Source: Longimicrobiales bacterium (GTDB lineage: Bacteria > Gemmatimonadota > Gemmatimonadetes > Longimicrobiales > RSA9). From it: a DNA stretch of 64,000 nucleotides. The notes under the pieces were generated by a model. The model was not told where the DNA came from and searched no databases. It saw only the letters and a list, made by a program, of their open reading frames with translations. The position numbers were made by a program, and so were the translations under genes. Position 1 is the first letter of the stretch. The number at the start of each line of letters is the position of its first letter. Shown here in pieces: positions 8,898 through 58,744 of this stretch. Location of the stretch: NCBI GenBank assembly GCA_036374995.1, contig DASUSS010000093.1, positions 45,945 to 109,944 of the forward strand. Direction: 5' to 3'.

Positions 8898-9869
8898 TCA
8901 AGCTGGACGGTCGGCGTCAGTGCCCGGTCCGGCTGTCTCGTCGGGCGGCGGCTCCAGCCAGTACGCCGGCTCGTCGGGCGGCTCCGCGGCGCGCAGCTGC
9001 TGCATCCGGCGCCGATCACGCCGGCGACGCATGACGAACAGCGCGAGCACGAGCAGCGCCGCGATTACCCAGATGAACATCGTCTGGGCGAGGATCTGGA
9101 GCCAGCCGAAGCGGCGCTTCACGTGCGCGCGCCAGAGCCGCTCGAACTGCGGCGAGGATACGACGTACACGCTCCGGAGGGATGCCTCGAAGTCGTCGGA
9201 CTCCGCCCACATCGCGAACAGCCGCTCGAGCGTTGCCGCACTGCCGAGCGAGTACAGGTACTGCACTGCGCTCGCGGACAGGAGGTACGCCAGCCGGGCG
9301 TCGACGGCGAGCAGGGGCCAGTCGAGCGTGAGCGAATCGAGCGGCGGCGCGCGCTCGGTGGCGAGCGCGAGGCGCAGCTGCCAGCCGGCGTTCGCGTCGA
9401 GCTGTCCGGCACTCCACGTCGCGTAGCCCTCCGTGAACCACCTCGGCACGAGCGCATCGCCGAGATGCCGCTGAAGCGCGACGTGGGCGAGCTCGTGACG
9501 CAGGATGTGGGGCAGCTCGTGCGTGCCGGCGCGCGACGAGACGTAGCCGGGCACGATGATCACACCGCGCTGCGGCAGCGCGACGCCGGCCCCCCACTCC
9601 GGGGCACGCCCTCCCGTCAGTGAATCGAAGCGCGCGGCATCGGGGGCGAGGTACACGTCGATGTCGCTGCCGCGTCGCAGGATGTCGGCCGGGAGGCCGG
9701 GAAAGGTCAGGCCGGCCGCCGACGTGAGCAGCGACGCTGCGAGCCGGTCCTGTCCGGGCCAGTAGTGGATGACCACGTCGTCGAGCCGCAGCGCCCCCTG
9801 CTGCGCGGTCGCACCGGCCGCCGGCAGCATGCCCGCCGCAACGAGCAGCGCGCCGCGCAACGATCTCAT
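8898..9869 (-). CDS. HExxH (peptidase MA-like) protein with signal peptide and C-terminal membrane anchor
   Basis: N-terminal MRSLRGALLVAAGMLPAAGATAQQ. HELAH motif within HILRHELAHVAL. C-terminal TM segment TMFIWVIAALLVLALFVM followed by RRRRDRRR. ATG forms an ATGA overlap with the cheB stop (9866-9869). Confidence 0.6.
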   Translation of the reverse strand: MRSLRGALLVAAGMLPAAGATAQQGALRLDDVVIHYWPGQDRLAASLLTSAAGLTFPGLPADILRRGSDIDVYLAPDAARFDSLTGGRAPEWGAGVALPQRGVIIVPGYVSSRAGTHELPHILRHELAHVALQRHLGDALVPRWFTEGYATWSAGQLDANAGWQLRLALATERAPPLDSLTLDWPLLAVDARLAYLLSASAVQYLYSLGSAATLERLFAMWAESDDFEASLRSVYVVSSPQFERLWRAHVKRRFGWLQILAQTMFIWVIAALLVLALFVMRRRRDRRRMQQLRAAEPPDEPAYWLEPPPDETAGPGTDADRPA

Positions 9870-10951
9870 TCCCGCCGGGTGCGCGCGCGCGCCGCAGTCA
9901 GGCGCGCGATCTCGTCGGCGACCTCACCGAGCGGCACTACGACCTCGGCGAAGGCGGCAGCGGCCCGGGGCATCCCGGTAATCACGGAGGTCTCCTCGTC
10001 CTGCGCGATCGTGCCCCCGCCAACCGCGCCAATGATGCGCAGCCCATCGGCGCCGTCACGCCCCATCCCGGTGAGCACGACGCCGACGCTCGCAGGACCG
10101 AACGTCCGTGCGATCGCTCGAAACAGCACGTCCGCTGCCGGCCTCACGTTCCACAGCAGCGGCGCCTCGGTGAGCAGGATCCGGACGCCGCCGGCGTCAC
10201 GCTGGAGGTCGAGGTGGAGGCCGCCGCGCGCGATGTAGATGACGCCCTCCTCCAGTACACTGCCCTGCTCGGCCTCGCGCACGGGCAGCGCGCACATCTG
10301 ATCGAGCCGCCGTGCGAACGCGCTCGTGAACAGCGCGGGCATGTGCTGCACGATGAACACGGCGGCAGGAAGGTCTTCGGGCAGCCGCGGCAGGATCTCC
10401 GCGAGCGCGCGCGGCCCGCCCGTCGATGCGGCAATCGCGACGGCGCAGCGCGCGGGCGGTGCACCCTCGTGGCGCCGCGCGCTCCGCTTCTGCCACAGCT
10501 GCCGGCGCCGCGGCAGGTTCAGCAGGTGCGCGACGGAGGCCGCACGCAGCGCCTGGTGCAGCCGCGTGCCGAACGCAGCCATCTCGGCAGACGAGGAGCC
10601 GTTCGGTTTCGCGACGAACTCGACCGCTCCGGCCTCCATGGCGCTCAGCGCGGAGTCGACGAGGGAGCGATCGTGCGCGGACACGATCACGACCGGTCGT
10701 GGCGCCTCGTGCAGCACGTAGTCGAGGGCCTCGCCACCGCCGAGATCCGGCATGGCCAGGTCGAGCGTGATGATGTCCGGATCCAGCTCGTGCACCATGC
10801 GGATCACCTCGTACCCGGTCGCCGCCTCGCCCACGACCTCGAAGTCTCCGCTGCCCGTGATGTGCTCGCGCAGCAGCGATCGCATCAGATCGCTGTCATC
10901 CGCGATCAGCACGCGGCGCGCACGGCGCGACTCAGAGGATGACATCGGCAT
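9866..10951 (-). CDS. cheB: protein-glutamate methylesterase/glutaminase CheB (receiver + esterase)
   Basis: Receiver domain RVLIADDSDLMRSLL...DIITLDLAMPD. Methylesterase half has AIAASTGGPRAL, FIVQHMP and LTGMGRDGA. Confidence 0.9.
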   Translation of the reverse strand: MPMSSSESRRARRVLIADDSDLMRSLLREHITGSGDFEVVGEAATGYEVIRMVHELDPDIITLDLAMPDLGGGEALDYVLHEAPRPVVIVSAHDRSLVDSALSAMEAGAVEFVAKPNGSSSAEMAAFGTRLHQALRAASVAHLLNLPRRRQLWQKRSARRHEGAPPARCAVAIAASTGGPRALAEILPRLPEDLPAAVFIVQHMPALFTSAFARRLDQMCALPVREAEQGSVLEEGVIYIARGGLHLDLQRDAGGVRILLTEAPLLWNVRPAADVLFRAIARTFGPASVGVVLTGMGRDGADGLRIIGAVGGGTIAQDEETSVITGMPRAAAAFAEVVVPLGEVADEIARLTAARARTRRE

Positions 10952-11471
10952 GGTTCACGGATGTGACGAGCAGCTGACCATCCATGGTACGCAGGAACAC
11001 GGAGCGGCCGTACGTGCCGAGCACGTCCTCGCCGTCGACCGGCACGCCCGCAGCGGCGAGCGCCTCCCGGGCCGCGTCCACGTTGCGGCGGCCGAGCTTC
11101 AATCCCTCGCGGTCGAGGATCGCGCGGAACATCGAGGCACCGCCGGCGAGCCGGCCACGCAGGCGGCTGCGCGACGCGCCGCGCGCCTCCATCAGCTCGA
11201 TCAGCTCGGGCACCGCCGTGCTGGCGAAGCGGCCGGGAGGTGCATCGCGCCGCCCACTGTCCGGATGCGGCAGCATGGCGTGCGCCAGGCCGCCGATCCG
11301 CTCGTACGCGTCGTACAGCGCGATGGCGACACACGACCCGAGGCCGACCGTATACAGCACGCTCGAGCCGGCCGCTGCCTTCACATCACCGATGTGGACG
11401 GGAACGTGCTCGGTCGCCTCGGCCCGAAACTCCAGCACCGAGCGGCGGGAGCTGCGCTGCTCCTCCATCAT
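10932..11471 (-). CDS. cheD: chemoreceptor glutamine deamidase CheD
   Basis: 179 aa with the CheD block TVGLGSCVAIALYD...GGLAHAMLP. The stop overlaps the cheB start by 20 nt. Confidence 0.9.
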   Translation of the reverse strand: MMEEQRSSRRSVLEFRAEATEHVPVHIGDVKAAAGSSVLYTVGLGSCVAIALYDAYERIGGLAHAMLPHPDSGRRDAPPGRFASTAVPELIELMEARGASRSRLRGRLAGGASMFRAILDREGLKLGRRNVDAAREALAAAGVPVDGEDVLGTYGRSVFLRTMDGQLLVTSVNHADVIL

Positions 11472-12373
11472 GCGCGGCGGAAGATGCGCTGGCGGCTCGC
11501 CATCGTCTGAAACAGGCCGGACTGCGCACCGAACAACGCCTCGACCTTGCCCAGCACGAGGTAGCCGCCCGGAACGAGCGCATCGTGGAACTGCCTGAAG
11601 AGCTGCTCCTGCACCGCGCGCTCGAAGTAGATGATGACGTTGCGGCAGAAGATGAGGTGCAGGTCGCGGGGGTGAGGTTCGCGGATCAGGTCGAGCGTCT
11701 CGAATCGCACGTTGCGCCGCGCCCCCGCCTTCAGTCGGTACACCCCATCGTGATCGAACCAGCGGTCCCGCAGCTCCGGCTCGATGTCCGTCATCGCGAA
11801 TTCCGTATACTCCGCACGTCGGGCGAACGCGAGACTCTCACGATCGATGTCGGTTCCCAGGATCTCGAACCGGTCCGGGTCCACACCGCGCTCCTGCGCG
11901 AACTCCTGTACCATGATCGCGGCCGAGTACGCCTCCTCGCCGCCCGCCGTGCCCGCACTCCAGATCCTGATCACCGGATCCTCGCGCGCCGCCAGCTCCG
12001 GCAGCACGTTGCGGGAGAGCATCTCCCAGACCTCGGGATTCCGGAAGAACTTGCTGACATTGATGGTGAGCGTATCGACGAGCTGCTCGTACTCCGCCCC
12101 GTCCGACGCGAGCAGCGCCGCGTACTGTGCGTAGCTGTGGACGCCACGCGCGCGCATCCGCACCGCAATACGCCGCCGCAGACACTTCTCCTTGTAGCCC
12201 TCGCAGAAGAACCCGACCGTCGCCTGGATCTGCTGCTTGAGAGCACGGAGCTCTGCGGCGTCGGCATCGCTCAGGTCACCGTGCGCGAGCGGGAGCGGCG
12301 GTACGCCGGACGGCTGTGCTTCACTGTGACTGCCTGCCGGGGCGGTCCGCTGCGACCGCTCATCCGGCGGCAT
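11468..12373 (-). CDS. cheR: chemotaxis protein methyltransferase CheR
   Basis: CheR blocks TINVSKFFRNPEVWE and IRIWSAGTAGGEEAYSAAI (SAM-binding). Start set at ATG 12373 (MPPDERS), because the longer ORF prefix overlaps the upstream gene in another frame. ATGA overlap with the cheD start. Confidence 0.85.
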   Translation of the reverse strand: MPPDERSQRTAPAGSHSEAQPSGVPPLPLAHGDLSDADAAELRALKQQIQATVGFFCEGYKEKCLRRRIAVRMRARGVHSYAQYAALLASDGAEYEQLVDTLTINVSKFFRNPEVWEMLSRNVLPELAAREDPVIRIWSAGTAGGEEAYSAAIMVQEFAQERGVDPDRFEILGTDIDRESLAFARRAEYTEFAMTDIEPELRDRWFDHDGVYRLKAGARRNVRFETLDLIREPHPRDLHLIFCRNVIIYFERAVQEQLFRQFHDALVPGGYLVLGKVEALFGAQSGLFQTMASRQRIFRRA

Positions 12374-13982
12374 TGACGACGATGTCGAGGTTGTTGCGGA
12401 CGATCGCGTTGTCCGGGTTGAGCTGGAGCGCGCGCTTCCAGGCCTCGACGGCCGCGTCGAGCGCGCGCGCCTTGTACTGGAGGTTGCCGATGCGGGCGAA
12501 CACGTCATCGCCCAGGCGCGGATCGAGCTCGGTCGCACGCAGGTAGTGCTTCAGCGCCTCGTCGTGAGCGGCCCGCCGATATGCGACATCTCCCAGGTTG
12601 CGGTGTGCCTGCGCGAGCGCGGGGTCCTCGTCGAGCGCCTGGCGATAGGAACGGTCCGCGTTGTCGAGGTCGCCGCGCCGCTCGCTGATCACACCCAGCA
12701 GCAGCAGCAGCGGCGCGGAGTCGCCGTAGATGTCGAGGCCCTGTGCGACGAGGGACTCCGCTTCGTTCAACTGGTCCATGGTGGCCAGGTTGAGCGCCGC
12801 GAAATAGAAGTAGTCGGCCGTCGGCCGGTCGCCGGGGCGGAGACGCGCGCGGAACTCATCGAACGCGGACCGCGCCTCCAGGTAGCGCGACGTGTGCAGC
12901 AGCGCGATGCCGCGCGCGAGCTCGGTGCGCGCGAGTCCCGGCTTCACGGCCTCCGCCTCGTCGAGCACGAGCAGCGCATCGGACGGACGGTCGAGCAGGC
13001 GTAGTGCGAGCGCCATGTTCATGAACGCGCCGTAATGCGCACCGCGCTCCTCCAGCAGGGTGCGCAGCTGCTTCACGGCATCGCGATACTGCTTCTCGCG
13101 CAGGCTGACGAGCGCGATGTGGTACCGGGCCGGAAAATCCTTCTCGTCGAGCTCCAGAACGCGCTCGAACTCCCGCGTGGCATCATCCATCATTCCGGTG
13201 CGGTAGAACGCGATGCCGAGGTTGCGGCGTTCCTGGAGCTCCGCTTCCCGGCCACGCACCGTCTCCTCCGCCTTCCGGCCGACGCGATGCGCGAAGCCCG
13301 CCTGGATCAACCCGAACAGTGCCTTGCCGACATCGAACTCGGCGAGCCGCGTCTGATCCGCCACCTCCTGCACGGTGCGGGTGCCATCGACCAGCGGGAT
13401 GATCTGCTGCTGCTCCGGCGTGAGCACCGCGTCGGAGCTGCGCACGCGGTCACGATCGATGTCGAACAGCAGATCCAGTGACGGAATCTTCTTCTCGATC
13501 ATGCTCCACTCGTCGACCCGGCGAGCGGCCTCGAGCAGCAGGCTCTCGGGATTGATGGTGACGACGAGATCGGCCTCATCGGGCGTGGCGTCCGGCTCGA
13601 AGAAGAAGTTGCCGCGCGACCACGTGAACAGGTGGTAGATCGCCTCTTCGATCTGGAGCCGGATGTAGTGCTTCAGCTCCGACTTCGTGATGTAGTTGTA
13701 GGAGACGAGCAGCTCACCGACGCGGCGGTCGGGCTCGCGCGCCTGGTGCTCGAGCACCTTCTCCAGCTGCCGCTGCGCGAGCACGCCTTCGCGCACGAGG
13801 ATGTCGCCCAGCCGGTCGCGGCGGTTGACGATGCGCGCGTACGTGATGCGGCCCTTGTCGAAGTAGATCTGGCCGAAGCGCGATCCGTCGGCGACCGAGA
13901 GGCAGCCGGACTTGAGGCCGAGCGCGAGGAGCTGGCAGACGTCGGCGAGGCTGGCTTCCTTGAGGCTGCCCTTGATGGCCAT
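12360..13982 (-). CDS. PATAN (DUF4388) domain + TPR repeat protein (540 aa)
   Basis: The N-terminus MAIKGSLKEASLADVCQLLALGLKSGCLSVADGSRFGQIYFDKGRITYA fits the DUF4388/PATAN pattern. The C-terminal half carries repeated TPR-like helices (YRTGMMDDATREFERVLELD..., AQAHRNLGDVAYR..., LGDDVFARIGNLQYK...). Confidence 0.75.
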   Translation of the reverse strand: MAIKGSLKEASLADVCQLLALGLKSGCLSVADGSRFGQIYFDKGRITYARIVNRRDRLGDILVREGVLAQRQLEKVLEHQAREPDRRVGELLVSYNYITKSELKHYIRLQIEEAIYHLFTWSRGNFFFEPDATPDEADLVVTINPESLLLEAARRVDEWSMIEKKIPSLDLLFDIDRDRVRSSDAVLTPEQQQIIPLVDGTRTVQEVADQTRLAEFDVGKALFGLIQAGFAHRVGRKAEETVRGREAELQERRNLGIAFYRTGMMDDATREFERVLELDEKDFPARYHIALVSLREKQYRDAVKQLRTLLEERGAHYGAFMNMALALRLLDRPSDALLVLDEAEAVKPGLARTELARGIALLHTSRYLEARSAFDEFRARLRPGDRPTADYFYFAALNLATMDQLNEAESLVAQGLDIYGDSAPLLLLLGVISERRGDLDNADRSYRQALDEDPALAQAHRNLGDVAYRRAAHDEALKHYLRATELDPRLGDDVFARIGNLQYKARALDAAVEAWKRALQLNPDNAIVRNNLDIVVNAAG

Positions 13983-13983
13983 G

Positions 13984-15738
13984 CTACTCCATCTCCTGGA
14001 TCACGCTGTCCTGGATGTAGGGCCATTGCCAGAGCAGCTTCTCGCGATTCAGGAACCAGTCATCGACCTGGAGTGCCGGCATCGCCGGCGCGGAGTCCGT
14101 CGCGGCGTCCAGCTCGGCACCCAGCCTCGCGTCCTGCGCCGATGGCGTGAGGTCCACAACCAGGCCGCTCTCGAGCCGTGTGCGGAGCCGGTCCTCGAAG
14201 CCGTGCAGCTCGCGTGGCGGCCGAGCAGCCGTGAACACGAGCTGCACGCCCGACCGGCGCGCGCTGTCGAAGAAATGGAACAGCTCCTCCTGCGCGCGCT
14301 CCGTCTGCTCGAGCGCATCGATGCCGTCGATGATGAGGAGGCGCGCGCGGCGGTAGCGCGCGCGCCAGCTGTCGACCTGGTTCCGCTTGAGCGCACCGAT
14401 CAGCTCGGCGGCGAAGTCTTCGCCGGTGAGGAACGCAATGCCGCCATCGCGATCGCGCTCGCGGAACAGCAGCGCGAGCGCTGTGACGAGCGCGGTCCTG
14501 CCCGCGCCGTCCGGCGCGTGCACGAACAGCGGGTTGTAGCGGTCGCCTGGCTGCTGCGCCACGGCGCGCGCCGCGCGCACGGCGAGCAGGTCGCGGTCGA
14601 GCGCCAGCTGCTCGAAGCGCGGCTCCTCCGGCGGCGGAGGCAGCGGGCGCATACGCTCGCGCACCTGCTCCAGAATCGACTCCGCCTCCTCCAGCCGATC
14701 CGGATTGCGCAGCACGTCGAGTCGCGCCAGCTCGGCCGCCGCGGGGTCCAGCTCCCGGATCTTCGCGGCGATCTCCCGCAGCCGTGTGACCGTCTCCTCG
14801 TACCGGCTCAGCAGCGCTTCGGCGTCCTCGTCCGTGAGGTCGTCCTTCAGCGCCGCCTCGAGCTGCCACGTCCGGTAGCCCTCGGCCTCCCAGCGGAGCA
14901 CCGCGTCGCCGACCTTCTGCGCCGGCGTGACCCCCGCCACCGCGCGGCCGAGCGTGCCCGCGACCTCGCTCATGAACGAGCCGAATTCGTCGGAACCACG
15001 CGGCTCTTCCGCTCGACCGAGCAGCTCCGGCACCTCCTCCGCGCTGACCGGCCGCCGATCGAGCTCCTGCACGGCGATCACGCGATTGAGCGCGCCCTGA
15101 AGCTCGCGCACGTTGCCGAATCCGATCTTCGCCAGCGCCTCCGCCACGCCCGTCGACAGCAGATGTCCCCGCTCCTCCGCCTTCTGCCGCACGATCGCCA
15201 CGCGCGTCTCGTAGTCCGGCACGCTCAGGTCCGCCATCAGCCCGCCCGAGAAGCGGGAGAGCAGGCGCTGATCGAGCCCGTCGATCTCGGAGGGCGGACG
15301 ATCACTCGCGAGCACGACCTGCCCGCCCCGGGCCATCAGCGCATCCCACGACCGCAGCAGCTCCTCCTGCGCACCGCGCCGGCCGGCGAGGAACTGGACG
15401 TCATCGAGGAGCAGAACGGACGCGCCGCGCAGCCGCGCGCGGAATGCATCACGCTCGCCCGCCTGGATCGCCTCCATCACGCCTTCCATCAGATGCTCGA
15501 GCGTGTCGTAGAGGACCTCGATGTTCTGATGGACGCGGCGGACGTGATTGCCGATCGCCATGATCAGGTGCGTCTTGCCGAGGCCGGACTCGCTGTAGAG
15601 GAACAGCGGGTTGTACGCCGAGCCGGGCGACTCCGCGACGCGCTTCGCGGCCGCTGCGGCCAGGCGGTTCGACGTGCCGACGATGTAGCTGTCGAACGTG
15701 TTCCGCGGGTCCAGACCGGGCGAGAGATCCTGCTTCAT
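13984..15738 (-). CDS. tandem DnaA-like AAA+ protein (intact module + degenerate module, no DNA-binding domain)
   Basis: Residues 10-225 carry YNPLFLYSESGLGKTH (Walker A), VLLLDDVQF (Walker B), LASDRPP, RLLSRFSGG and NVRELQGALNRV, as in DnaA domain III. Residues 376-530 repeat the core as YNPLFVHAPDGAGRTA, LLIIDGID, FTAARPP and RLRTRLESG. No domain I/II or IV. Confidence 0.75.
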   Translation of the reverse strand: MKQDLSPGLDPRNTFDSYIVGTSNRLAAAAAKRVAESPGSAYNPLFLYSESGLGKTHLIMAIGNHVRRVHQNIEVLYDTLEHLMEGVMEAIQAGERDAFRARLRGASVLLLDDVQFLAGRRGAQEELLRSWDALMARGGQVVLASDRPPSEIDGLDQRLLSRFSGGLMADLSVPDYETRVAIVRQKAEERGHLLSTGVAEALAKIGFGNVRELQGALNRVIAVQELDRRPVSAEEVPELLGRAEEPRGSDEFGSFMSEVAGTLGRAVAGVTPAQKVGDAVLRWEAEGYRTWQLEAALKDDLTDEDAEALLSRYEETVTRLREIAAKIRELDPAAAELARLDVLRNPDRLEEAESILEQVRERMRPLPPPPEEPRFEQLALDRDLLAVRAARAVAQQPGDRYNPLFVHAPDGAGRTALVTALALLFRERDRDGGIAFLTGEDFAAELIGALKRNQVDSWRARYRRARLLIIDGIDALEQTERAQEELFHFFDSARRSGVQLVFTAARPPRELHGFEDRLRTRLESGLVVDLTPSAQDARLGAELDAATDSAPAMPALQVDDWFLNREKLLWQWPYIQDSVIQEME

Positions 15739-15748
15739 GCAGTGGCGA

Positions 15749-16357
15749 TCACGGCTGCTGTATCTCCTGGCCGAAGCGGCGCGAGAGGTTCTGGAGCACG
15801 AGCTTGCTCGCAGCCTTCAGCGTATCGAATACCCCCTCGCCGGAAACCGCGGCCGCCGGGAACGACGGTGCACCGCGGAAATTCAGCGTATCGTCCAGCT
15901 GTGCGACCGGGATGATGCCCGGCAGGTCGCGCTTGTTGTACTGGAGCACCATCGGGAACGTCTTCAGGTCGATGTCTTCCTCCAGCAGATTCTCGTGCAG
16001 GTTGCGGAGACTCTCGATGTTCTCCTCCCACTGCTCCGGCTGGGAGTCGGCGACGAACACGATACCATCCGCGCCGCGCAGCACGAGCTTGCGTGTGGCA
16101 TTGTAATACACCTGGCCGGGCACGGTGTAGAGCTGCATGCGCGTACGGAACCCCGAGATCGTGCCGAGGTCGAGCGGCAGGAAGTCGAAGAAGAGGGTGC
16201 GATCGGTTTCCGTCGCGAGCGAGACCATCGGCCCCTTCCGGTCCTCCGGCACGAACGCGTGAATGTACTGCAGGTTGCTCGTCTTTCCGGACCGGCCCGG
16301 ACCGTAGTAGACGATCTTGCAGGTGATCTCCCGGGTCGAATAATTGACCAGCGACAT
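15749..16357 (-). CDS. mglA: Ras-like small GTPase MglA
   Basis: MSLVNYSTREITCKIVYYGPGRSGKTSNLQYI...TETDRTLFFDFLPL...LYTVPGQVYY...QYNKRDL closely parallels Myxococcus MglA along its whole length (P-loop, TDRT Arg, PGQ, NKxD). Confidence 0.9.
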   Translation of the reverse strand: MSLVNYSTREITCKIVYYGPGRSGKTSNLQYIHAFVPEDRKGPMVSLATETDRTLFFDFLPLDLGTISGFRTRMQLYTVPGQVYYNATRKLVLRGADGIVFVADSQPEQWEENIESLRNLHENLLEEDIDLKTFPMVLQYNKRDLPGIIPVAQLDDTLNFRGAPSFPAAAVSGEGVFDTLKAASKLVLQNLSRRFGQEIQQP

Positions 16358-16849
16358 CTAGTCCTCGCTTGCTGCGTCCGGCGACGTATACTCCAGCCCG
16401 GCTTCGAGGTCGTGCTCGAAGCTCGTCTGGTCCCTGTGCTCCCGCTGCTCCTGGAACTCCGGGAGCGCCGATACTTCCCGCTCGAGGTTCTCGTAGAACA
16501 GCCGGACGATGCCGAGCGACGAGTCGGCATCGAAGATGACCACGAGAATCAGCTCCTCGATCGGCGTTCGCAGCGGCGCGAGGAACAGCTGCCGTTCGCG
16601 GCCGCCATGATACAGGTGCTCCCACCGCTCCGCGCCCGCGAGCTGCGCGAGTGCATTGGAGGAAGCATGCGTGGCTGCTGCGAGCGACGCGATGTTGCGG
16701 ATCTGGTACGCCCGCGTGAACCCGTGCTGCGCGAGCACCTGTCCGGCGTGGCTGACGAGCAGCGCGATGCGGACGCGCGATTCGCGCACGAAACGCTGGA
16801 TCGGGTCCCGCAGGACGTCGATCAGCCGCGGGAGCTCGGCTCCTCTCAT
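16358..16849 (-). CDS. mglB: Roadblock/LC7 protein MglB (MglA GAP)
   Basis: Roadblock fold with LILVVIFDADSSLGIVRLFYENL, matching the MglB block LVVIFDNRTSLGLVRL. Acidic C-terminal tail. The stop abuts the mglA start with a 0-nt gap. Confidence 0.8.
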   Translation of the reverse strand: MRGAELPRLIDVLRDPIQRFVRESRVRIALLVSHAGQVLAQHGFTRAYQIRNIASLAAATHASSNALAQLAGAERWEHLYHGGRERQLFLAPLRTPIEELILVVIFDADSSLGIVRLFYENLEREVSALPEFQEQREHRDQTSFEHDLEAGLEYTSPDAASED

Positions 16850-17193
16850 GCCAGCGATTCCGCCGCGCGGTGCGCCTCGTAGCGCACGAGACCGAGCTGG
16901 GCGTCATGGTCGGCAACGACCACGAGGATCAGCTCGCCGGCATCCACAGCCACGACGTGCCCTTCATCCGCCTCCAGCTGGAGCGTGTTCAGCCGGCCGA
17001 AATCCGCGGTCTCGCTCGCCACCGCGGTTCGGCGGAACAGCGAGGCCGCGAGCGCCGCGACGGCCGTCTCGTTCACGCCCTCGCGCAGCTCCGAGACGAC
17101 GGGCACGCCGGCTTCGCTCTCGACGAGCAGCGCGCCTCGCACGCCCGCCACGCGACTCAGCCGCTCGACCGCCGCCGTGAACAGCGCGTTCAT
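16846..17193 (-). CDS. Roadblock/LC7-domain protein (116 aa, MglB paralogue)
   Basis: MNALFTAAVERLSRVAGVRGALLVESEAGVPVVSEL...LILVVVADHDAQLGLVRYE is a Roadblock pattern. GGAGG lies 8 nt upstream of ATG 17193. ATGA overlaps at both ends. The longer ORF prefix is Arg-rich noise. Confidence 0.7.
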   Translation of the reverse strand: MNALFTAAVERLSRVAGVRGALLVESEAGVPVVSELREGVNETAVAALAASLFRRTAVASETADFGRLNTLQLEADEGHVVAVDAGELILVVVADHDAQLGLVRYEAHRAAESLA

Positions 17194-18245
17194 GCGTATT
17201 CCTCCATGTACTGCCGCGCCTGACCGACCGCGTGTGCGGACGCGCGCACGAGCCAGCCGGCGGGTGCGTCGCGCCGCGCCGCGAGCATGAGCACGGCATC
17301 TACGCCGGCCGGCGTGAGGTGGAGCAGCGCGTGCTCGGCATCGAGCAGGATGCCGCGCCACGTGCCCAGCGCGAGGTGACGCGCCGTGCGGGTCGCTTCG
17401 CCGATCGCGCCACCCAGCACGGCACCGAGCACCGCGGCGTCACCGCGCATCGCCTCGGTCAGGCGACCGGCCAGAACGAGCCCCTTGCGATCGACGAGCA
17501 GCGCGCCGAGCAGCGGCCCGGCCGAGAGCAGATCGTCGAAGAGCAGGGTCGGATCGAGCGTGACCGGCCCGGCGACGGCGGCGATCGACGGTTCCGGGCG
17601 GACCTCGCGCGGCCTTTCGGCGGACGGGTCGGGCGCATCGTCCTCGGCGGCCGGCGCCGGCGCACGGCCATCGGCGGCCGGTGGCTGCGCACGGGCATCA
17701 GCGGTCGGCGCGTCCTCCTCCCGCGGGCCCGCGGGCTCGAGCATGAACGTGGGGCCGGCATCCGCGGCAGCCCACGGATCATCGCTGAACGAGATGTCGC
17801 GGGCGTGTGCGAGACCCGACTCCGTGATCTCCTGACGCGTGCCGAGCACGCGCAGCGCTTCCTGCACGGTCGGATCCTCGGGCCGGATCAGGGCGGCCCG
17901 CTCGAGCATCTGCCGCGCGCGGCTGAGCCGGTCCTGCTCGAGGAAGCAGAAGCCCATGCCGCGCAGCGCCTCGAAGTTGTCGGCATCGATGCGCAGCACC
18001 ATCGACCATTCGTCGGCGGCCTTCTCGTGATCGCCCTGGTCCAGGTACAGCATCGCGAGCAGGCCATGTGCCTCCACGTGCGCCGGATGCGCCTCGAGGC
18101 CGCGCAGGCAGAGCTGGAGCGAGGCGGCGCGCAGTCCCTGCTTGCGATAGGCACGCGCGAGCGGCAGGAACGCCAGCGATCGGGGATCGCGCGCCACCTC
18201 CTCGCTCCAGCGTTGCAGGTCGGCCTGTGCCGGTGTCTTCATCAT
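17190..18245 (-). CDS. TPR + C-terminal Roadblock/LC7 fusion protein (351 aa)
   Basis: N-terminal TPR helices (ARAYRKQGLRAASLQLCLRGLEAHP, HGLLAMLYLDQGDHEKAADEW...), then a Pro/Ala-rich linker. The C-terminus GPLLGALLVDRKGLVLAGRL...AVLMLAARRDAPAGWL is Roadblock-like. Confidence 0.65.
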   Translation of the reverse strand: MMKTPAQADLQRWSEEVARDPRSLAFLPLARAYRKQGLRAASLQLCLRGLEAHPAHVEAHGLLAMLYLDQGDHEKAADEWSMVLRIDADNFEALRGMGFCFLEQDRLSRARQMLERAALIRPEDPTVQEALRVLGTRQEITESGLAHARDISFSDDPWAAADAGPTFMLEPAGPREEDAPTADARAQPPAADGRAPAPAAEDDAPDPSAERPREVRPEPSIAAVAGPVTLDPTLLFDDLLSAGPLLGALLVDRKGLVLAGRLTEAMRGDAAVLGAVLGGAIGEATRTARHLALGTWRGILLDAEHALLHLTPAGVDAVLMLAARRDAPAGWLVRASAHAVGQARQYMEEYA

Positions 18246-18246
18246 C

Positions 18247-19374
18247 TCAATTCGTGATCACGCGCCGCACGATCTGCGTGAGCGCGCGCAGCGACGCGAG
18301 CGCCTGGGCCGCGAGCTGTCTCGGCTCTCCGTTCGGCGCCAGCCGCAGGAACGTTTCCCAGGCCTTCGTCGCGCGCTCCAGCTCGCCCGTGCGGATCGCA
18401 GCGAAGCCGAGCAGGTAGTGCGCGTCCAGTGACGTCGCGTCCAGCCCGACGGCGCGCGAGAACGATTCCGTCGCAGCCCGCATCCGGTTCTGGGCGACGA
18501 GCGTGCGACCGGTCAGGACGGCCAGATCGCCGCGCTCCGGGTACGACGTCTCGAGCTGCGTCGCGAGCTTCTGCGCCTCGTCCGCACGTCCCGCCGCGAG
18601 CAGCGCTTCGACATCCTCGATCGTCTGGCTCAGCTCCAGCTCCGGGATCCGCGTGCGCGGCTCGACGACCTCGAGCACGCCGGTGCTGACCAGACCATAC
18701 ACGATCTTCGCCACATCGAACGCGGAGCGGCCGAGGTCCGCCGCGAGCTGGCGTACGTCCCGCTCGCCATCGATCTCGGCGAGCACCTCCCACTCATCGG
18801 AGCGCAGCTCGAGCGGAGTCATCTCCCGGTCCGCGTTCGCGCCGAGCACCGGCACCGCCTCGGGACTCGGCACCTTCGCCTCCAGCCGTGTCCACTCGTC
18901 GATCCGCCGCGCTCCCTCCATGAGCAGCGACTCGACGCGCACGCGCGCCAGCAGCCGCTGCTCGCCGATCTCGCCCCGCTCCTCGAACTTGAAGTACCCC
19001 TCATCCCACGGCATGACCTCGTAGATCGTCTCCTCCATCTGGAACCGGAGCTGACGCTCCAGCTCCTCCTCCCCTACACTGCCCATCTCCAGAAGGATCT
19101 CGGCGAGGCGGCGAGTCGGGTCCGCACGTTGCAGCTCCAGCGCACGGTCCAGCTCGCGCTGTGTCAGCTTCCCCGCGCGGATCAGCAGCTGACCCAGGCG
19201 CCGCGTGGAGCGCCGGCGGACGGCGAAGACGATCGCGCCGCGCGACAGGTGGACGATCGCCTCGTCGTTCAGCCGCTCCGAGCGCACCGTCAGCACGCCG
19301 GTCTTGTGCGCCAGCTCCAGGAGCTGGAGCACATCCTGGATGCTCAGCTCGGCGAGCGCCCCCTCGATGGCCAC
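18247..19374 (-). CDS. PATAN (DUF4388) domain protein with C-terminal TPR-like region (375 aa)
   Basis: MAIEGALAELSIQDVLQLLELAHKTGVLTVRSERLNDEAIVHLSRGAIVFA fits the DUF4388/PATAN pattern and is paralogous to 12360..13982. The C-terminus has TPR-like helices. Confidence 0.7.
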   Translation of the reverse strand: MAIEGALAELSIQDVLQLLELAHKTGVLTVRSERLNDEAIVHLSRGAIVFAVRRRSTRRLGQLLIRAGKLTQRELDRALELQRADPTRRLAEILLEMGSVGEEELERQLRFQMEETIYEVMPWDEGYFKFEERGEIGEQRLLARVRVESLLMEGARRIDEWTRLEAKVPSPEAVPVLGANADREMTPLELRSDEWEVLAEIDGERDVRQLAADLGRSAFDVAKIVYGLVSTGVLEVVEPRTRIPELELSQTIEDVEALLAAGRADEAQKLATQLETSYPERGDLAVLTGRTLVAQNRMRAATESFSRAVGLDATSLDAHYLLGFAAIRTGELERATKAWETFLRLAPNGEPRQLAAQALASLRALTQIVRRVITN

Positions 19375-19377
19375 GAC

Positions 19378-22032
19378 TCAGCGCTCCGGTCCGAGTGCCG
19401 CGAGGGCCGCCGCGGCCCGCTCGTGTCGCGGCTGGAGTCGCAGCACGCGCTGGTACGCCTGGCGCGCGTCGTCGGTGCGGCCGTCCTTCACGAGCAGCTC
19501 GGCCAGCCGGACGAGCGCCTCCATCGCGTACGGATCCATGGTCAGCAGATCGATCATGACGTGCACGGCCTCGCGCACGCGGCCCCGTCGCTCCAGGAGG
19601 TCCGCCAGGCCCGTCGCCGCCTCGCCGTAGCTCGGAAGCACCCGCAACGCCGCACGATATTCCGACTCCGCCTCCTGCACGCGCCCGTCCTGCGCGAGCA
19701 CACGAGCGAGCGCGGTGCGCGCTGCCACCGCCATGGTGTCGCTCGCAACGGCGCGACGGAGCGTAGTCTCCGCACCATCCGCGTTCCCCGCGGCCGCGTA
19801 TGCCGACCCCAGCTCGGTGAGCAGGTGCGAGTCATCGGGCGCGGCCAGGCGGGCCTGCTCGAGCACGAGCGCGGCGCGCGCATAGTCGTGAACGCGGGCC
19901 AGCGCGCCGCCGAGCGTGCGCAGCGCCTCGACGTCGTTCGGCGAAAGCTCGCACAGCCGCTCCGCGGCTTCGACCGCTTCCGTCATGCGGCCGAGATCCA
20001 TGAGGGACCGCGCGGCACCGTGCAGCGCGGTTCGGAGCGACTGATCCTCCTCGCCGACCTCGCTGCGCGCGATCTCCGCCAGCGCGTCGTTGAACCGGTC
20101 CACCGCTTCGCCGGACAGCCCACGCCGCAGGAAGACCTCGCCCTGGAGCAGCAGCACATCGATGCGCGGCGCACCCATCATCGCGGCCCGCTGCGCTTCG
20201 GCACTCGCCTGCTCCAGCATGCCGCGATCCATCGACTGCCGTGCGGCGTCCAGCAGGTCGCGGCCGGGTGCCTCGGCCTCGGGCCGTGCCTGCGGCCGGG
20301 CCGACTCGATGAACACCTCATCCAGCACGCCCGGCTGGAAATGGAACGCATCGATCACCTCACCGCCTGCAACCCGCGCGGCGGGATCCAGCTCGGGCGC
20401 CAGCACGCTCGCTTCCTCGAACTGCAGATCGATCAGCAGCCGGAACCGCGGCGTGGGAATGTAGGGGTTGAGGTCCAGCGCATGCTTCGTCTCGTTCAGC
20501 GCGCCGGCATAGTCACCGAGCGCCGACATCGCGAACGCGAGGTGATAACGGGCCTCGGCCAGCGATGGATCCAGCTCGACCGCGCGGAGCAGATGGACCC
20601 GCGCCTGCTCCGCGTGACCCATCTCAAGCAGCAGAATCCCGTATCCGGTCAACGCCTGCGCGGCGGACGGGTTCGCCTCGATCGCGCTCTGGTACGCCCG
20701 CAGACTCTCCTCCCGGCGCCCCTCGCGGTGCAGCATGAGCGCGAAGTTGCGCCACAGATCGCCGAGCGCACGGCCTTCCCTGACTGCCGCCTGGAACGCC
20801 GGTTCCGCATCCGGCGCACCGCGATGGTGCCGCACGATCGCGAGGTTGTTCCAGGCCAGTGCGTAGTTCGGATCGATCTCGAGCGACCGGTAGTACGCCC
20901 CCTCGGCTTCCTCCAGGTCGCCCATCTGGTGCCGGACCACGCCGAGCTCGTTCCACAGCTTCGGACTGGCCGGCTCCTGCTGGATGAGCGATGCGTACAG
21001 CTCGAGCGCCTCCTCGCCCTGTCCTCGCAGCAGCAGCATCTCCGCCTGCGCCTGCTGCACCAGATACGTGTCCTCGCCGCGCTCGGTCGCGAGCCGGAAC
21101 TCGCGCAGCGCCTCGTCGTACAGCGCCTTCTGCCGGAACGCCAGGCCGAGGTTGTAGTGTGCCAGCTCGCCGCCCGCAGCCACGCGCGGCGAGCCCGTCC
21201 CGCGCTCGCCGACCAGCTCCTCGTAGCGCGCCGTGCTGTAGCTGTCGAGCGACAGCCCCGCCTCGGCCTTCGCGTAGCTCGGGTTCAGCTGAGCCGCGCG
21301 GTTCGCCGTCTCCGTCGCGCGCTCCGTGTCGCCGAGATCGCCGTAGACGAAGGCGAGCAGATGGTGCGCGTCGGCCAGACCGGGGTCGAGCTGAATCGCG
21401 CGCTCCAGCGGCTCGCGCGCGTCGCCGCTCAGCCCGCGCTGGTACTGCACCTCCCCGATCATGAAATGGACCCGTGCACTGGTTCCGTCCAGCGCTTCCG
21501 CGCTGCGCAGTGCGGCGAGCGCCGCCTCCAGGTCGCCCTTCTTCAGCTCCGCCCGCGCGAGTCGCTGGTACACGGCCGCATCGTTGGGGCGGACCGCCAG
21601 CAGCTCGTGCAACTCGCGCACGGCCGCATCGGCGTCCCCGCTGTTGAAGTAGGCCCGCGCCAGCTGGTCGCGCGCCTCCGCGTCCAGCGGGTCCGCCTCC
21701 AGCCGCTGCCGCAGCTGCGAGCTCAGCCGCTCGAAGTGACCGGTGCCGAAGTAGGCGATCTGGAGATTTCGCTCGGCGACCTGCATCCGCGGATCGATCT
21801 CCAGCGCGCGCTCGAACTGGTCGACCGCATCCTGGTACAACCCCTTGTTGTAGAAGACCACGCCGAGGTTGTTGTGCGCACCCGCATCCTGCGGATTGAT
21901 GCGACGGGCGAGCGCACGCAGGATCTCGAGGTCGCGCTCGGAGCGCGGCGAGGTGCCGGGCGGATGCCGGCCGCCCTCACCTCGATCCGTCCAGGGCATC
22001 GACGCAGGAACACGGGTCGGCTGTGTGCTCAT
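19378..22032 (-). CDS. large TPR repeat protein (884 aa)
   Basis: TPR consensus units run throughout (AHNNLGVVFYNKGLYQDAVDQFERALEIDP, ALAWNNLAIVRHHRG..., and others). No other domain seen. Its ATG overlaps the cheC stop by 1 nt. Confidence 0.8.
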   Translation of the reverse strand: MSTQPTRVPASMPWTDRGEGGRHPPGTSPRSERDLEILRALARRINPQDAGAHNNLGVVFYNKGLYQDAVDQFERALEIDPRMQVAERNLQIAYFGTGHFERLSSQLRQRLEADPLDAEARDQLARAYFNSGDADAAVRELHELLAVRPNDAAVYQRLARAELKKGDLEAALAALRSAEALDGTSARVHFMIGEVQYQRGLSGDAREPLERAIQLDPGLADAHHLLAFVYGDLGDTERATETANRAAQLNPSYAKAEAGLSLDSYSTARYEELVGERGTGSPRVAAGGELAHYNLGLAFRQKALYDEALREFRLATERGEDTYLVQQAQAEMLLLRGQGEEALELYASLIQQEPASPKLWNELGVVRHQMGDLEEAEGAYYRSLEIDPNYALAWNNLAIVRHHRGAPDAEPAFQAAVREGRALGDLWRNFALMLHREGRREESLRAYQSAIEANPSAAQALTGYGILLLEMGHAEQARVHLLRAVELDPSLAEARYHLAFAMSALGDYAGALNETKHALDLNPYIPTPRFRLLIDLQFEEASVLAPELDPAARVAGGEVIDAFHFQPGVLDEVFIESARPQARPEAEAPGRDLLDAARQSMDRGMLEQASAEAQRAAMMGAPRIDVLLLQGEVFLRRGLSGEAVDRFNDALAEIARSEVGEEDQSLRTALHGAARSLMDLGRMTEAVEAAERLCELSPNDVEALRTLGGALARVHDYARAALVLEQARLAAPDDSHLLTELGSAYAAAGNADGAETTLRRAVASDTMAVAARTALARVLAQDGRVQEAESEYRAALRVLPSYGEAATGLADLLERRGRVREAVHVMIDLLTMDPYAMEALVRLAELLVKDGRTDDARQAYQRVLRLQPRHERAAAALAALGPER

Positions 22033-22646
22033 CAGGCCAGCTTCATCATACGCAGCATGATCTGGAGCGACGCCGCATCGGGGATCAGCAGGAAATGGCC
22101 GCGGATGTGCTCCTCACCCATGCTCATTCCGGTGTTCACGCACAGCACGTAGTCGTGGGCCTCGCCGAAGTTGAGATAGCTCGTGGTCATGACCGCGCCG
22201 ACCATGTCGATCGCTATCGCCGGAACCGACATGATCAGCAGCAGCCCCATGAAGTCCGACAGCGCATTCAGGTAGGCACCCACGATGATGTTGCCGATCT
22301 CCTTGAGCGTATTCTGATGCTCGTCCGTGAACTCGTCCGGGAACACGGGCTCGCGGTCACCGGTCAGGATGCTGATGAGCTTCACCGCCGAGGCGCCCGG
22401 GAAGATCTGGAGTGTCCGGCCGGTGACATCGCCGAGCACCTTCATCATCACCGCGGCCACGACATCGTCGGGCGCGCCCGTCACGCTGCCGACGTCCTCG
22501 AGGCGTATGATGCTGACCTCGGGCACATCGATCATGATGACGCGATCGGTCATCTGCGACAGCGCCGTGGCCGCGTGGCCGGCGCCGATGTTCGCGATTT
22601 CGCGCATTGCGTCGAGTTGCGACGCGTCGAGCGTGCGTAGATCCAT
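22032..22646 (-). CDS. cheC: CheY-P phosphatase CheC
   Basis: 204 aa with both CheC active-site motifs, DAMREIANIGAGHAATAL...VP and NTLKEIGNIIVGAYLNAL...VP. Confidence 0.85.
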   Translation of the reverse strand: MDLRTLDASQLDAMREIANIGAGHAATALSQMTDRVIMIDVPEVSIIRLEDVGSVTGAPDDVVAAVMMKVLGDVTGRTLQIFPGASAVKLISILTGDREPVFPDEFTDEHQNTLKEIGNIIVGAYLNALSDFMGLLLIMSVPAIAIDMVGAVMTTSYLNFGEAHDYVLCVNTGMSMGEEHIRGHFLLIPDAASLQIMLRMMKLA

Positions 22647-22654
22647 CTACGACC

Positions 22655-24442
22655 TCATATCACGCTGAGCGGGTCGAGCACCAGAGCCGGCCGCCCGTCG
22701 GCGAGCAGGGTCGCCCCCGAGAAGAAGGGGAGCATTCCCGTCACACCGTCGAACGTCCGCACGAGGATCTGTTCGCGACCGACGAGCTCGTCGACGGCGA
22801 GCGCGGCGCGGCGATCACCGATCTCGGCGATCACGGCCGCGTTCTCGGTCCCGTCGGCCTCCACGCGCAGCACGCGCCGCAGGCGGACGAGCGGCACGGC
22901 ATGGTTGCGGACGTGCAGGACGCGCGCGCCGTTCATGGCAGCGCCATCCAGCTCGACGGCCTCCGTGACGTGCGTCAGCGGGATCGCGTAATCCTCTCCG
23001 CCGACGCGCACGCGCAGCGCCTGTGCGACGGCGAGCGTGATCGGCAGACGCAGGGTGAACGAAGTACCGGCGCCCGGCTTCGTGCGCATGTCGATCGCAC
23101 CGCCCAGAGCCCGCACGCGGTTCACCACGACATCCACGCCCACGCCACGGCCGGACACCGTGCTGACCTCGTCGGCCGTCGACAGACCCGGTGTGCTCAT
23201 GAGCCGGAACAGGTCCTCGTCCGTCGCCGGCGGCTCGTCCTCAGCATACAGCCCGGCCGCCCGTGCCTTCTCGGCGACGCGCTCCGCGGAAACGCCGCGG
23301 CCGTCATCGTCCACGACGATACGCACGCTGCCCCGCTCACGCTCGGCGCGCACGCGGATCCTGCCGCGCGGCCGCTTGCCCGCCGCACGCCGGTCCGCGG
23401 CACCCTCGATCCCGTGATCGACCGCATTGCGCAGCAGGTGTACGAGCGGCTCGCCGATCTCGTCGAGGATGGCGCGGTCCAGCTCGACGTCTTCGCCCTC
23501 GAGCACCAGCTCCACTTCGCGCCCCACGGCACGGGCCGCATCGCGCACCACACGCGGCAGGCGGGCGAACACCTCGCGCACCGGTACCATGCGCAGGGCG
23601 CGCATGTCGTGCTCCAGCTCGCCGAGCACTGCACCGACACGATCGATCATCTCGCTCACCTGCGTCGGGAGCGGCGCCTGTTGCAGGCGCGCGTAGAGCA
23701 CCGACAGCTCGCCCAGCCCATCGGCCAGGCCGTCCAGCCGCTGCACATCCACGCGCACCTGACGGGCGTGCCGTGCCGCCGCTGCGCCGTTGCCGGGCGC
23801 GCCGACCCGCCGCAGCTCCACCGTGTCCACGTCACCCGCGCCGCGGATTGCCGACTCGACTGCCGTCTGATCCGCGCTGCTGTCGAGAAAGATGACGAAC
23901 GCACCGTCGAACTCATCGTCGAAGGCGGCGGGATCGGAGCCGAGCATGCCCGGCAGGCTCTCCAGCGCGCGGAGGATGAGGGCGGCGCGGGCGCCCTTGA
24001 TCGGCGCATCGGCGCGGAGCCGGACGTGTGCGAGCGTCGTGGTACCTTCCGGAGCCCGGTGGGCACTGCCGGACTGCGCGGGCCGCTCTGCGGATTCGGG
24101 GGTCGGGCCGTGCGGTCCGGACGGCGTCGTGAGCACCGCACCGCTGATCGCGTCCTCGAGCTCATCGGCGCCGGCGAGGAGGGCATCGATGACCTCGGCC
24201 TCGGCCCGGAGTGTGCCCGCACGGATCGCGTCGAGACGGTCCTCCAGCCGGTGCGCGAGATCGGCAACCGCGTCATAGCCCATCGCGGCCGAGATACCCT
24301 TCAGCGTATGCGCCGCGCGGAACGCCTCCGCCACGGTATCACTGCCCGCGCCCGCTTCCAGCTCGATCAGGCTGCGCTGCAGCAGCCGGATGTGCTCCTG
24401 CGTCTCCGAGACGTAGAGGTCGACGAATTTGCGGAGATCCAT
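22655..24442 (-). CDS. cheA: chemotaxis histidine kinase CheA
   Basis: Hpt P1 with phospho-His box AAHTLKGISAAMG. Kinase core HLLRNAVDHGIE, DDGRGV and GRGVGVDVV. C-terminal CheW-like domain (EDYAIPLTHVTE...). Start at ATG 24442 (MDLRKFVDLY), 5 nt after the cheY stop. Confidence 0.9.
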   Translation of the reverse strand: MDLRKFVDLYVSETQEHIRLLQRSLIELEAGAGSDTVAEAFRAAHTLKGISAAMGYDAVADLAHRLEDRLDAIRAGTLRAEAEVIDALLAGADELEDAISGAVLTTPSGPHGPTPESAERPAQSGSAHRAPEGTTTLAHVRLRADAPIKGARAALILRALESLPGMLGSDPAAFDDEFDGAFVIFLDSSADQTAVESAIRGAGDVDTVELRRVGAPGNGAAAARHARQVRVDVQRLDGLADGLGELSVLYARLQQAPLPTQVSEMIDRVGAVLGELEHDMRALRMVPVREVFARLPRVVRDAARAVGREVELVLEGEDVELDRAILDEIGEPLVHLLRNAVDHGIEGAADRRAAGKRPRGRIRVRAERERGSVRIVVDDDGRGVSAERVAEKARAAGLYAEDEPPATDEDLFRLMSTPGLSTADEVSTVSGRGVGVDVVVNRVRALGGAIDMRTKPGAGTSFTLRLPITLAVAQALRVRVGGEDYAIPLTHVTEAVELDGAAMNGARVLHVRNHAVPLVRLRRVLRVEADGTENAAVIAEIGDRRAALAVDELVGREQILVRTFDGVTGMLPFFSGATLLADGRPALVLDPLSVI

Positions 24443-24447
24443 GCGGA

Positions 24448-24810: not shown

Positions 24811-24839
24811 GGGGTGTTGTCCTCGCCAGTAGTTTCCGC

Positions 24840-25289: not shown

Positions 25290-25383
25290 AGATTCCCGCT
25301 GGGATGCGACGTCGCGCGCTGATTCCGCGGCGTCCTTACCACTCGGTTGGGCGACTGAAGATACTGCCCGGCCGCTCCCTCGG

Positions 25384-30063: not shown

Positions 30064-30079
30064 GCGGGGTTGTCGTGGT

Positions 30080-38127: not shown

Positions 38128-38153
38128 TCCTCGTCCTCGCGCCCTCGCCGCCG

Positions 38154-56444: not shown

Positions 56445-58744
<2,300 letters not shown>

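Follow-up and report, generated by a model that had tools for sequence, protein, structure and literature searches.

In a 64,000-nucleotide stretch of DNA from a soil-dwelling Longimicrobiales bacterium (phylum Gemmatimonadota; GenBank assembly GCA_036374995.1, contig DASUSS010000093.1, positions 45,945 to 109,944 of the forward strand; G+C about 70%), which we refer to as the window, four tightly joined genes encode an MglA/MglB switch, that is, a small Ras-like GTPase and its Roadblock-fold GTPase-activating protein (GAP), together with two further proteins of the Roadblock fold. These two partners have been recruited independently, one of them is fused to tetratricopeptide repeats (TPRs), and the whole arrangement, which is phylum-wide and lies within an operon of Che genes, is a new form of this known switch. 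We propose, giving the idea an even chance, that the locus forms the central part of an MglA polarity switch, under Che control and confined to the Gemmatimonadota, in which the accessory Roadblocks dock the GAP on scaffolds.

The four genes lie on the minus strand in the following order: the TPR-linker-Roadblock fusion (18245..17190, 351 aa; an open reading frame with Pfam TPR_19/TPR_2 and Robl_LC7 domains); a stand-alone, minimal Roadblock protein termed here Roadblock-2 (17193..16846, 115 aa; its ATG at 17193 is inside an ATGA overlap); MglB, the predicted Roadblock GAP of MglA (16849..16358, 163 aa; recognized by Robl_LC7 and by matches to MglB proteins in the PDB); and MglA, a group 1 Ras-like GTPase (16357..15749, 202 aa; recognized by its match to Myxococcus xanthus MglA). 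The fusion gene and the Roadblock-2 gene overlap by 4 nt (gcATGAac), as do the Roadblock-2 gene and mglB (gcATGAga), and the mglB stop abuts the mglA start with a 0-nt gap (TAGATG). An earlier reading made from the sequence alone (the sequence-only reading) had described mglA with three Roadblock genes upstream, joined by 0-nt gaps or ATGA overlaps, and the gene calls and junctions agree with it; the peptides that it quoted, LILVVIFDADSSLGIVRL and LLGALLVDRKGLVLAGRL, are present in the translations, and the 116 aa that it gave for Roadblock-2 is one too many, because its codon count took in the stop. The fusion is 100% identical to a 351-aa NCBI protein from a Longimicrobiales metagenome-assembled genome (MAG), and the database labels are generic (‘tetratricopeptide repeat protein’, ‘roadblock/LC7 domain-containing protein’).

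The GTPase and its GAP are readily placed. MglA matches M. xanthus MglA at E 5e-76, with 118 identities over 195 positions (60.5%, close to the 60 percent first estimated by eye). Conserved across 44 orthologues are the P-loop GPGRSGKT, the switch-1 segment TETDRTLFFDF with Arg53 (the intrinsic arginine finger) and Thr54, the TVPGQ segment with the catalytic Gln82 and without the G3 Asp, and the NKRD motif; the last helix carries K/R residues and reads ...TLKAASKLVLQNLSRRF. All the sequence features that define group 1 MglA proteins (Wuichet and Sogaard-Andersen 2014) are present, as is genetic coupling (mglB within four genes of mglA), mglB and mglA being adjacent in 43 loci. MglB, in line with its first identification, finds its M. 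xanthus and Thermus namesakes in the PDB with E values of 8e-11 to 2.5e-7, and scores 34.6 bits against Pfam Robl_LC7 (PF03259; gathering cut-off 23 bits). Against the NCBIfam MglB equivalog it reaches E 1.7e-11 and 44 bits, under the cut-off of 200, and by sequence it is distinct from that Thermus-type equivalog. On grounds of homology MglA can be called a Ras-like GTPase of group 1 that brings its own arginine finger and catalytic glutamine, and together with MglB it makes up a GTPase/GAP pair like those of Myxococcus and Thermus.

MglB also carries an acidic C-terminal extension of about 35 residues, in which the motif F-E-x-D-L-E-A-G-L is invariant or nearly so among 25 orthologues; an extension of more than 15 residues is found in MglB only, Roadblock-2 and the fusion having none. 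Baranwal et al. (2019; PMC6785124) reported that MglB's Ct-helix and helix alpha5 of MglA co-evolve, and that this pair underlies the allosteric exchange-promoting activity of Myxococcus MglB; the features by which they recognize it are a D/E-rich C-terminal extension of more than 15 residues and K/R residues on MglA alpha5. Both are found here, so that the MglB extension and the K/R-bearing last helix of MglA match the Ct-helix/alpha5 pair, and by analogy the extension probably also gives the local MglB an allosteric exchange-promoting activity.

That the two genes upstream of mglB encode Roadblock folds, as first read from the letters, is agreed upon by Pfam, AlphaFold2 models and Foldseek, and neither protein fails to model as a Roadblock. 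Robl_LC7 is scored at 35.0 bits in Roadblock-2 and at 36.2 bits in the fusion. The model of Roadblock-2 (pLDDT, the AlphaFold2 per-residue confidence, 94.6) is a complete alpha-beta-beta-alpha-beta-beta-beta-alpha sandwich. In the fusion, TPR families exceed their Pfam thresholds over residues ~25-135, and in the model eight TPR helices span residues 5-142 with pLDDT above 90, the Pro/Ala/acidic linker at 150-222 is disordered (pLDDT below 50), and residues 237-350 form a Roadblock of alpha-beta-beta-alpha-beta-beta-beta-alpha topology (pLDDT about 90). Searched against the PDB with Foldseek, this C-terminal domain matches 9jue, 1j3w, 7f8m, 3t1r and 3kye with template modelling (TM) scores, normalized to the target, of 0.72-0.81; the matches include the Asgard Roadblocks 9jue and 7f8m, Thermus MglB (1j3w) and one Streptomyces Roadblock. 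Roadblock-2 matches Asgard Roadblocks with TM up to 0.90 and, over all listed chains, LAMTOR2 at 0.79-0.88 and M. xanthus MglB at 0.84-0.88. By topology and Pfam score alike, Roadblock-2 and the C-terminal domain of the fusion belong to the Roadblock/LC7 fold.

The three Roadblocks differ widely in how near they stand to one another. Profile comparison with hhalign relates Roadblock-2 to the local MglB family at 95% probability (E 2.5e-8) and to the fusion Roadblock at 74% (E 2.9e-5), and gives a probability of 1.2% for the fusion Roadblock against the local MglB. Recent tandem duplication as the origin of all three was considered and rejected, the profiles being very divergent. The fusion Roadblock is of a rare subtype (among 1.84 billion representatives, 204 clusters when grouped at 50% identity) that is essentially always TPR-fused: an N-terminal TPR domain is present in 9 of the 9 plausible full-length distant members examined.

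Within the fusion family the N-terminal TPR domain is almost invariant, the linker varies in length, and total length runs from about 274 to 470 aa. The longest homologues (440-470 aa) were considered as Rosetta-stone fusions with Roadblock-2, and this was rejected: their Roadblock is C-terminal and the extra length is in the linker. The mean distance is 0.54 for the TPR domain as against 0.83 for the Roadblock part, and the slower evolution of the TPR domain fits a specific docking partner. Two segments are almost invariant in the family: the N-terminus (residues 1-35), DLQRWSxEVARDPxSLAFLPLAxAYR, and a DDPW motif (residues 150-160) located just after the TPR domain.

A survey in which one genome per species was scanned for fusion-encoding loci returned 48 of them, 45 titled Gemmatimonadota (covering Longimicrobiales, Longimicrobium and Gemmatimonadales) and three titled ‘uncultured bacterium’. 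The fusion, Roadblock-2 and MglB follow one another in that order in 44/44 genome loci long enough to judge, with mglA next in 43 of the 44; and two more, distant loci from metagenomes (L049 and L051) share the arrangement, with a fusion Roadblock identity of only 34-36%. Because the order recurs in 48 genome loci and 2 metagenome loci, the gene cluster is not due to chance. The ATGA overlaps are kept as well, between the fusion gene and the Roadblock-2 gene in 39/45 loci and between the Roadblock-2 gene and mglB in 40/44, as would be expected if the subunits of a single complex were translationally coupled. At a larger scale, essentially every locus long enough presents an eight-gene order: a TPR protein, a PATAN-TPR protein, the TPR-Roadblock fusion, Roadblock-2, MglB, MglA, a DnaA-like AAA+ protein and a second PATAN-TPR protein. 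Che genes flank this module, in conserved order, in most loci, including the two from metagenomes.

For the proposed polarity switch we envisage the following course of events. Roadblock-2 and the fusion Roadblock would be non-catalytic accessory subunits, made in fixed proportion to MglB through translational coupling, which would join the MglB dimer, or each other, by Roadblock-Roadblock contacts; a Roadblock-2:TPR-Roadblock heterodimer is one possible form, to which the conserved ATGA coupling lends indirect support. The highly conserved TPR domain, carried on a long flexible linker, would anchor the GAP to the TPR and PATAN scaffolds encoded alongside, a role comparable to that of Myxococcus MglC plus RomR and filled by unrelated Roadblock paralogues, and the flanking CheA/CheY pathway would switch the assembly as Frz does in Myxococcus. 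There are precedents for both kinds of contact: the MglC dimer lies between MglB dimers and RomR, and TPR proteins bind MglA in Bdellovibrio. The sequence-only reading had suggested that the fusion tethers the GTPase cycle to the TPR/PATAN scaffolds; such a role is plausible, and reasonable because the fusion adjoins conserved TPR and PATAN proteins with strict synteny and translational coupling. That reading also took the locus to encode, perhaps, the full set of regulators in cis; no gene like RomR, RomX or RomY is seen, and the surrounding Che operon and the DnaA-like ATPase had escaped it.

A number of results weigh against this proposal, many of them concerning MglC. MglC is a clade of mainly orphan MglB paralogues (MglB_orphan1) marked by an F-D-G-I turn, with an MglC-type gene beside mglB-mglA in seven genomes (McLoon 2016); its dimer contacts MglB through an FDI surface and residues E84/R115/K119/K120 of M. 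xanthus MglB (Kapoor 2021, PMC7949163; Carreira 2023, PMC10329633). Membership of the accessory Roadblocks in this clade was judged by profile searches, fold ranking, and checks of motif and contact residues. The family profiles of both do not match the solved MglC (7CT3) even at E<=10; they match Asgard Roadblock proteins and Thermus MglB, and that of Roadblock-2 additionally matches M. xanthus MglB as well as LAMTOR2. The best 50 Foldseek matches of Roadblock-2 do not include MglC, and an NCBIfam search at E<=10 gave no MglC-type model for either protein. The MglC turn between beta1 and beta2, F25-[D/E]26-G27-I28, is absent from both: Roadblock-2 has E/D/Q at position -2, A (16), D (6) or T (4) at -1, an invariant G, V/L/I at +1 and no aromatic residue, and the fusion Roadblock has an invariant D-x-x-G-L, as in mglA-coupled MglB proteins. 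Nor are the MglC-binding residues kept in 25 Gemmatimonadota MglB proteins, where the positions of E84, R115 and K119/K120 show A/G, Q (19/25), E/D and mixed residues. Roadblock-2 does resemble MglC in size (115 aa as against about 120 aa, without N- or C-terminal extensions), which is weak evidence because many generic Roadblocks share the short size. By profile, fold ranking, motif and contact residues the accessory Roadblocks do not come out as MglC orthologues. Of the ‘MglC-like adaptor’ first suggested, clade membership is not shown, while an analogous adaptor role may stand: an MglC-like adaptor or tether is a possible role and our best functional guess. As the accessory Roadblocks do not group with MglC and the contact residues of MglB are not conserved, what carries the analogy with Myxococcus is fold and gene context.

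Other points against the proposal come from covariation and from the loci themselves. A mirror-tree comparison made on 29 complete loci, after removal of the background, set the Roadblock domains of all three proteins, the TPR domain and MglA against one another; the partial correlations were weak (0.03-0.36), and no pairing can be called from them. In a Gemmatimonadales MAG (1.7-Mb contig; locus L023, positions 11313-13732 of the locus) the three Roadblock genes and the DnaA-like gene are kept and mglA is cleanly absent from the cluster, with mglB overlapping the start of the DnaA-like gene, which implies that the Roadblocks may have an MglA-independent partner. A second locus (L013) has the eight-gene module directly between rluD and a peptidase gene, without Che genes, and a third (L018) has the three Roadblock genes and mglA followed directly by cheR, without the DnaA-like and second PATAN genes; these last two show that the sub-modules are separable. 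Finally, pilus, gliding and flagellar genes were searched for in the rest of the window and none was found.

Among the alternatives to the docking proposal, the one that survives best, although we regard it as doubtful, is that the extra Roadblocks act on MglA directly, for example as a LAMTOR-like heterodimer serving as an exchange factor, co-GAP or alternative GAP and replacing RomR/RomX/RomY. Eukaryotic Roadblock/longin dimers are established GAPs, guanine nucleotide exchange factors (GEFs) and scaffolds of small GTPases (Ragulator, GATOR1, FLCN-FNIP), and by the TM scores given above the fold of Roadblock-2 is about equally near LAMTOR2 and MglB (0.79-0.88). The D-x-x-G turn that the fusion Roadblock keeps is typical of mglA-coupled MglB (McLoon 2016), and the local MglB has itself lost the Asp; no RomR/RomX/RomY-like gene is seen in the operon; and the highest residual covariation of Roadblock-2, weak as it is, is with MglA and MglB (0.36 and 0.34, respectively). 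Against direct action, both accessory proteins lack the acidic C-terminal helix, the profiles of the fusion Roadblock and the local MglB have hardly any similarity, and Myxococcus MglB has by itself both GAP and exchange-promoting properties: Dinet et al. (2026; PMC13408092) describe RomRX as an effector and MglB as having GAP and GEF properties, so that a separate GEF is contested. MglC, moreover, the sole extra Roadblock of an MglA system to have been studied, neither binds MglA nor alters its GTPase activity. A further reading, which we hold to be improbable, makes the two non-MglB Roadblocks a Ragulator-like heterodimer with two tasks: its TPR arm would anchor it at the pole, and it would supply the exchange factor or co-regulator that MglA otherwise lacks here. 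If true, a single Che-controlled operon would hold a small GTPase, a Roadblock-fold GAP and a Roadblock-fold GEF/scaffold, a bacterial counterpart of Ragulator-Rag logic; and with the DnaA-like ATPase, polarity might be coupled to the cell cycle or budding instead of motility.

It is similarly improbable, in our judgement, that Roadblock-2 pairs with MglB as an asymmetric heterodimeric GAP and leaves the TPR-Roadblock as a separate homodimeric anchor. One MglA is bound asymmetrically by an MglB dimer, there are known systems in which one MglA goes with two MglB genes (Wuichet and Sogaard-Andersen 2014), Roadblock-2 is nearer in profile to MglB than to the fusion Roadblock, and its ATGA coupling to mglB is kept in nearly all loci; yet the Roadblock-2 gene is equally coupled to the fusion gene upstream, and the solved MglB proteins are all homodimers. 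Very improbable is that the accessory Roadblocks regulate, in place of the MglA cycle, the DnaA-like AAA+ ATPase: the gene of this ATPase follows mglA in about 40 loci and stays with the three Roadblocks where mglA is absent (L023), and Roadblock/LC7 proteins have been proposed as general NTPase regulators (Koonin and Aravind 2000), but it is to mglB and mglA that the Roadblock genes are coupled, and not to the AAA+ gene, L018 keeps them with mglA and without the ATPase, and there is no known precedent of a Roadblock acting on an AAA+ protein.

Among known systems, the module of M. xanthus (MglA/MglB/MglC with RomR/RomX/RomY) is nearest: both have a group-1 MglA with an intrinsic Arg finger, an MglB GAP with an acidic C-terminal extension, and extra protein(s) of the Roadblock fold. 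Control by a Che-type pathway, which is Frz in Myxococcus, may be shared too, Che genes flanking the module in most Gemmatimonadota loci. Unlike in Myxococcus, where the partners are scattered over the genome and there is one extra Roadblock, the Gemmatimonadota have all partners in one operon and two extra Roadblocks, one TPR-fused and neither, by sequence, fold ranking or motif, an MglC orthologue, and their operon adds PATAN-TPR proteins and a DnaA-like ATPase and shows none of RomR/X/Y. Loci with two mglB genes (Wuichet and Sogaard-Andersen 2014; McLoon 2016) likewise have more than one Roadblock gene beside one mglA, only one of them being the co-evolving MglB; the Gemmatimonadota differ in having three, and in the TPR fusion. 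Ragulator/LAMTOR, like other stacked Roadblock dimers around Rag GTPases, sets several distinct Roadblock subunits on one small-GTPase switch, as the Gemmatimonadota cluster may, and Roadblock-2 superposes on LAMTOR2; unlike in Ragulator, the GTPase is MglA and not Rag, and there is no lipidated anchor subunit, the TPR domain being the likely docking device. Actinobacterial conservons (the kinase CvnA, the Roadblock CvnB, CvnC and the GTPase CvnD) similarly unite a sensor kinase, a Roadblock and an MglA-family GTPase in a conserved operon; in them the MglA is of group 2, without the Arg finger, the kinase is a membrane histidine kinase and there is only one Roadblock, in contrast with the full CheA/W/Y/R/B/C/D pathway, group-1 MglA and three Roadblocks described here. 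MglA also has known TPR partners, Bd2492 of Bdellovibrio and SgmX of Myxococcus, proteins that bind the GTPase or work downstream of it at the cell pole; unlike the Gemmatimonadota fusion, they have no Roadblock domain and are not encoded beside mglA.

Wuichet and Sogaard-Andersen (2014) found that the neighbourhoods of group-1 mglA genes ‘vary widely’, with the Myxococcus and Bdellovibrio partners not encoded near mglA and a small subset of loci having two MglB genes, and noted REC-Roadblock fusions and no TPR-Roadblock fusions. Their only Gemmatimonadota genome, that of G. aurantiaca, is listed as MglB>MglA> and PATAN>MglA>-PATAN>; in this cultured model the cluster is apparently split or reduced, which may be why the full one went unnoticed. 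A literature search returned no account of the Gemmatimonadota cluster, and no other paper that pairs Gemmatimonadetes with MglA.

In Myxococcus the regulators of MglA are scattered and their roles disputed, the identity of the GEF having been questioned again in 2026, whereas in this phylum a single packed operon brings together MglA and MglB, the two further Roadblocks, the three TPR/PATAN proteins, the AAA+ ATPase and all of the Che pathway. As a minimal parts list provided by nature, the operon points to candidate direct partners and could be co-expressed as a unit for biochemistry and structure; we rate its interest as moderate to high because the list is self-contained and tractable, for a system whose regulation is debated. 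It would indicate that MglB has on more than one occasion, and without any tie to MglC, acquired extra Roadblock subunits; it offers the first TPR-Roadblock architecture tied to a GTPase switch, and it is relevant to the possible origin of multi-Roadblock assemblies such as Ragulator.

The neighbours of the four-gene core are all on the minus strand. Upstream is a PATAN (DUF4388)-TPR protein (18247..19374, 375 aa; DUF4388 at 96.6 bits plus TPR in Pfam), whose stop falls 1 nt before the start of the fusion and which is conserved in 48/48 loci; it is preceded by a large all-TPR protein (19378..22032, 884 aa; Pfam TPR families), which opens the eight-gene module in every locus reaching that far. 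Downstream, 10 nt past the mglA stop, starts the gene for the DnaA-like tandem AAA+ protein (13984..15738, 584 aa), which has Pfam Bac_DnaA twice and is without DNA-binding domain IV, its match to TIGR00362 being confined to model positions 102-336. Among 32 orthologues the Walker A/B motifs of its first module (SGLGKTHL, LLLDDVQF) are conserved; the second, degenerate module (GAGRT, IIDG) is lacking from the Longimicrobium proteins (393-396 aa). In the middle of the protein stands ILRWEAEGYRTxRLE, a conserved motif unique to it, and a WP motif is present at the C-terminal end. We know of no described link between a DnaA-like ATPase and MglA. The second PATAN (DUF4388)-TPR protein (12360..13982, 540 aa; DUF4388 at 128.7 bits plus TPR) is conserved in position. 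Both PATAN-TPR proteins exceed the cut-off of 38 bits for NCBIfam NF053729, an MshE-related motif that binds cyclic di-GMP (42.7 bits for the 375-aa protein and 44.1 bits for the 540-aa one), which suggests an input of cyclic di-GMP into the MglA module; in the PATAN insertions of both, RLGxxLLxxGxLxxxxLxxxLxxQ is readable twice in tandem.

The module is nested in a complete Che operon, with CheW-Y-A-C/X upstream and CheR-D-B downstream. Named by their Pfam domains, the upstream genes encode CheW (reading frame 24840-25469, start uncertain; CheW), CheY (24448-24810; Response_reg), CheA (22655-24571, probable ATG at 24442; Hpt/P2/HATPase_c/CheW) and CheC/CheX (22032-22646; CheC/CheX), and the downstream genes CheR (reading frame 11468-12538, true start probably near 12373; CheR/CheR_N), CheD (10932-11471; CheD) and CheB (9866-10951; CheB_methylest and Response_reg). 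All told, fifteen genes run from cheW to cheB (9866-25469) with overlaps or gaps of no more than about 30 nt, and no gene for a methyl-accepting chemotaxis protein lies within the cluster. A scan of 8.5-26.5 kb placed one sigma-70-like promoter site just upstream of cheW and found no internal terminators beyond chance; the counts equal those of shuffled sequence, so both carry little weight. The window otherwise holds housekeeping genes (26902-30648, 36109-38301, 48770-55098, 56749-58023), for isoleucyl-tRNA synthetase, FtsH, two RND efflux pumps and enolase. In both metagenome loci two extra cheW genes come after cheB (at about 16300-17000), a place taken in the window by a Peptidase_MA gene (8898-9869).

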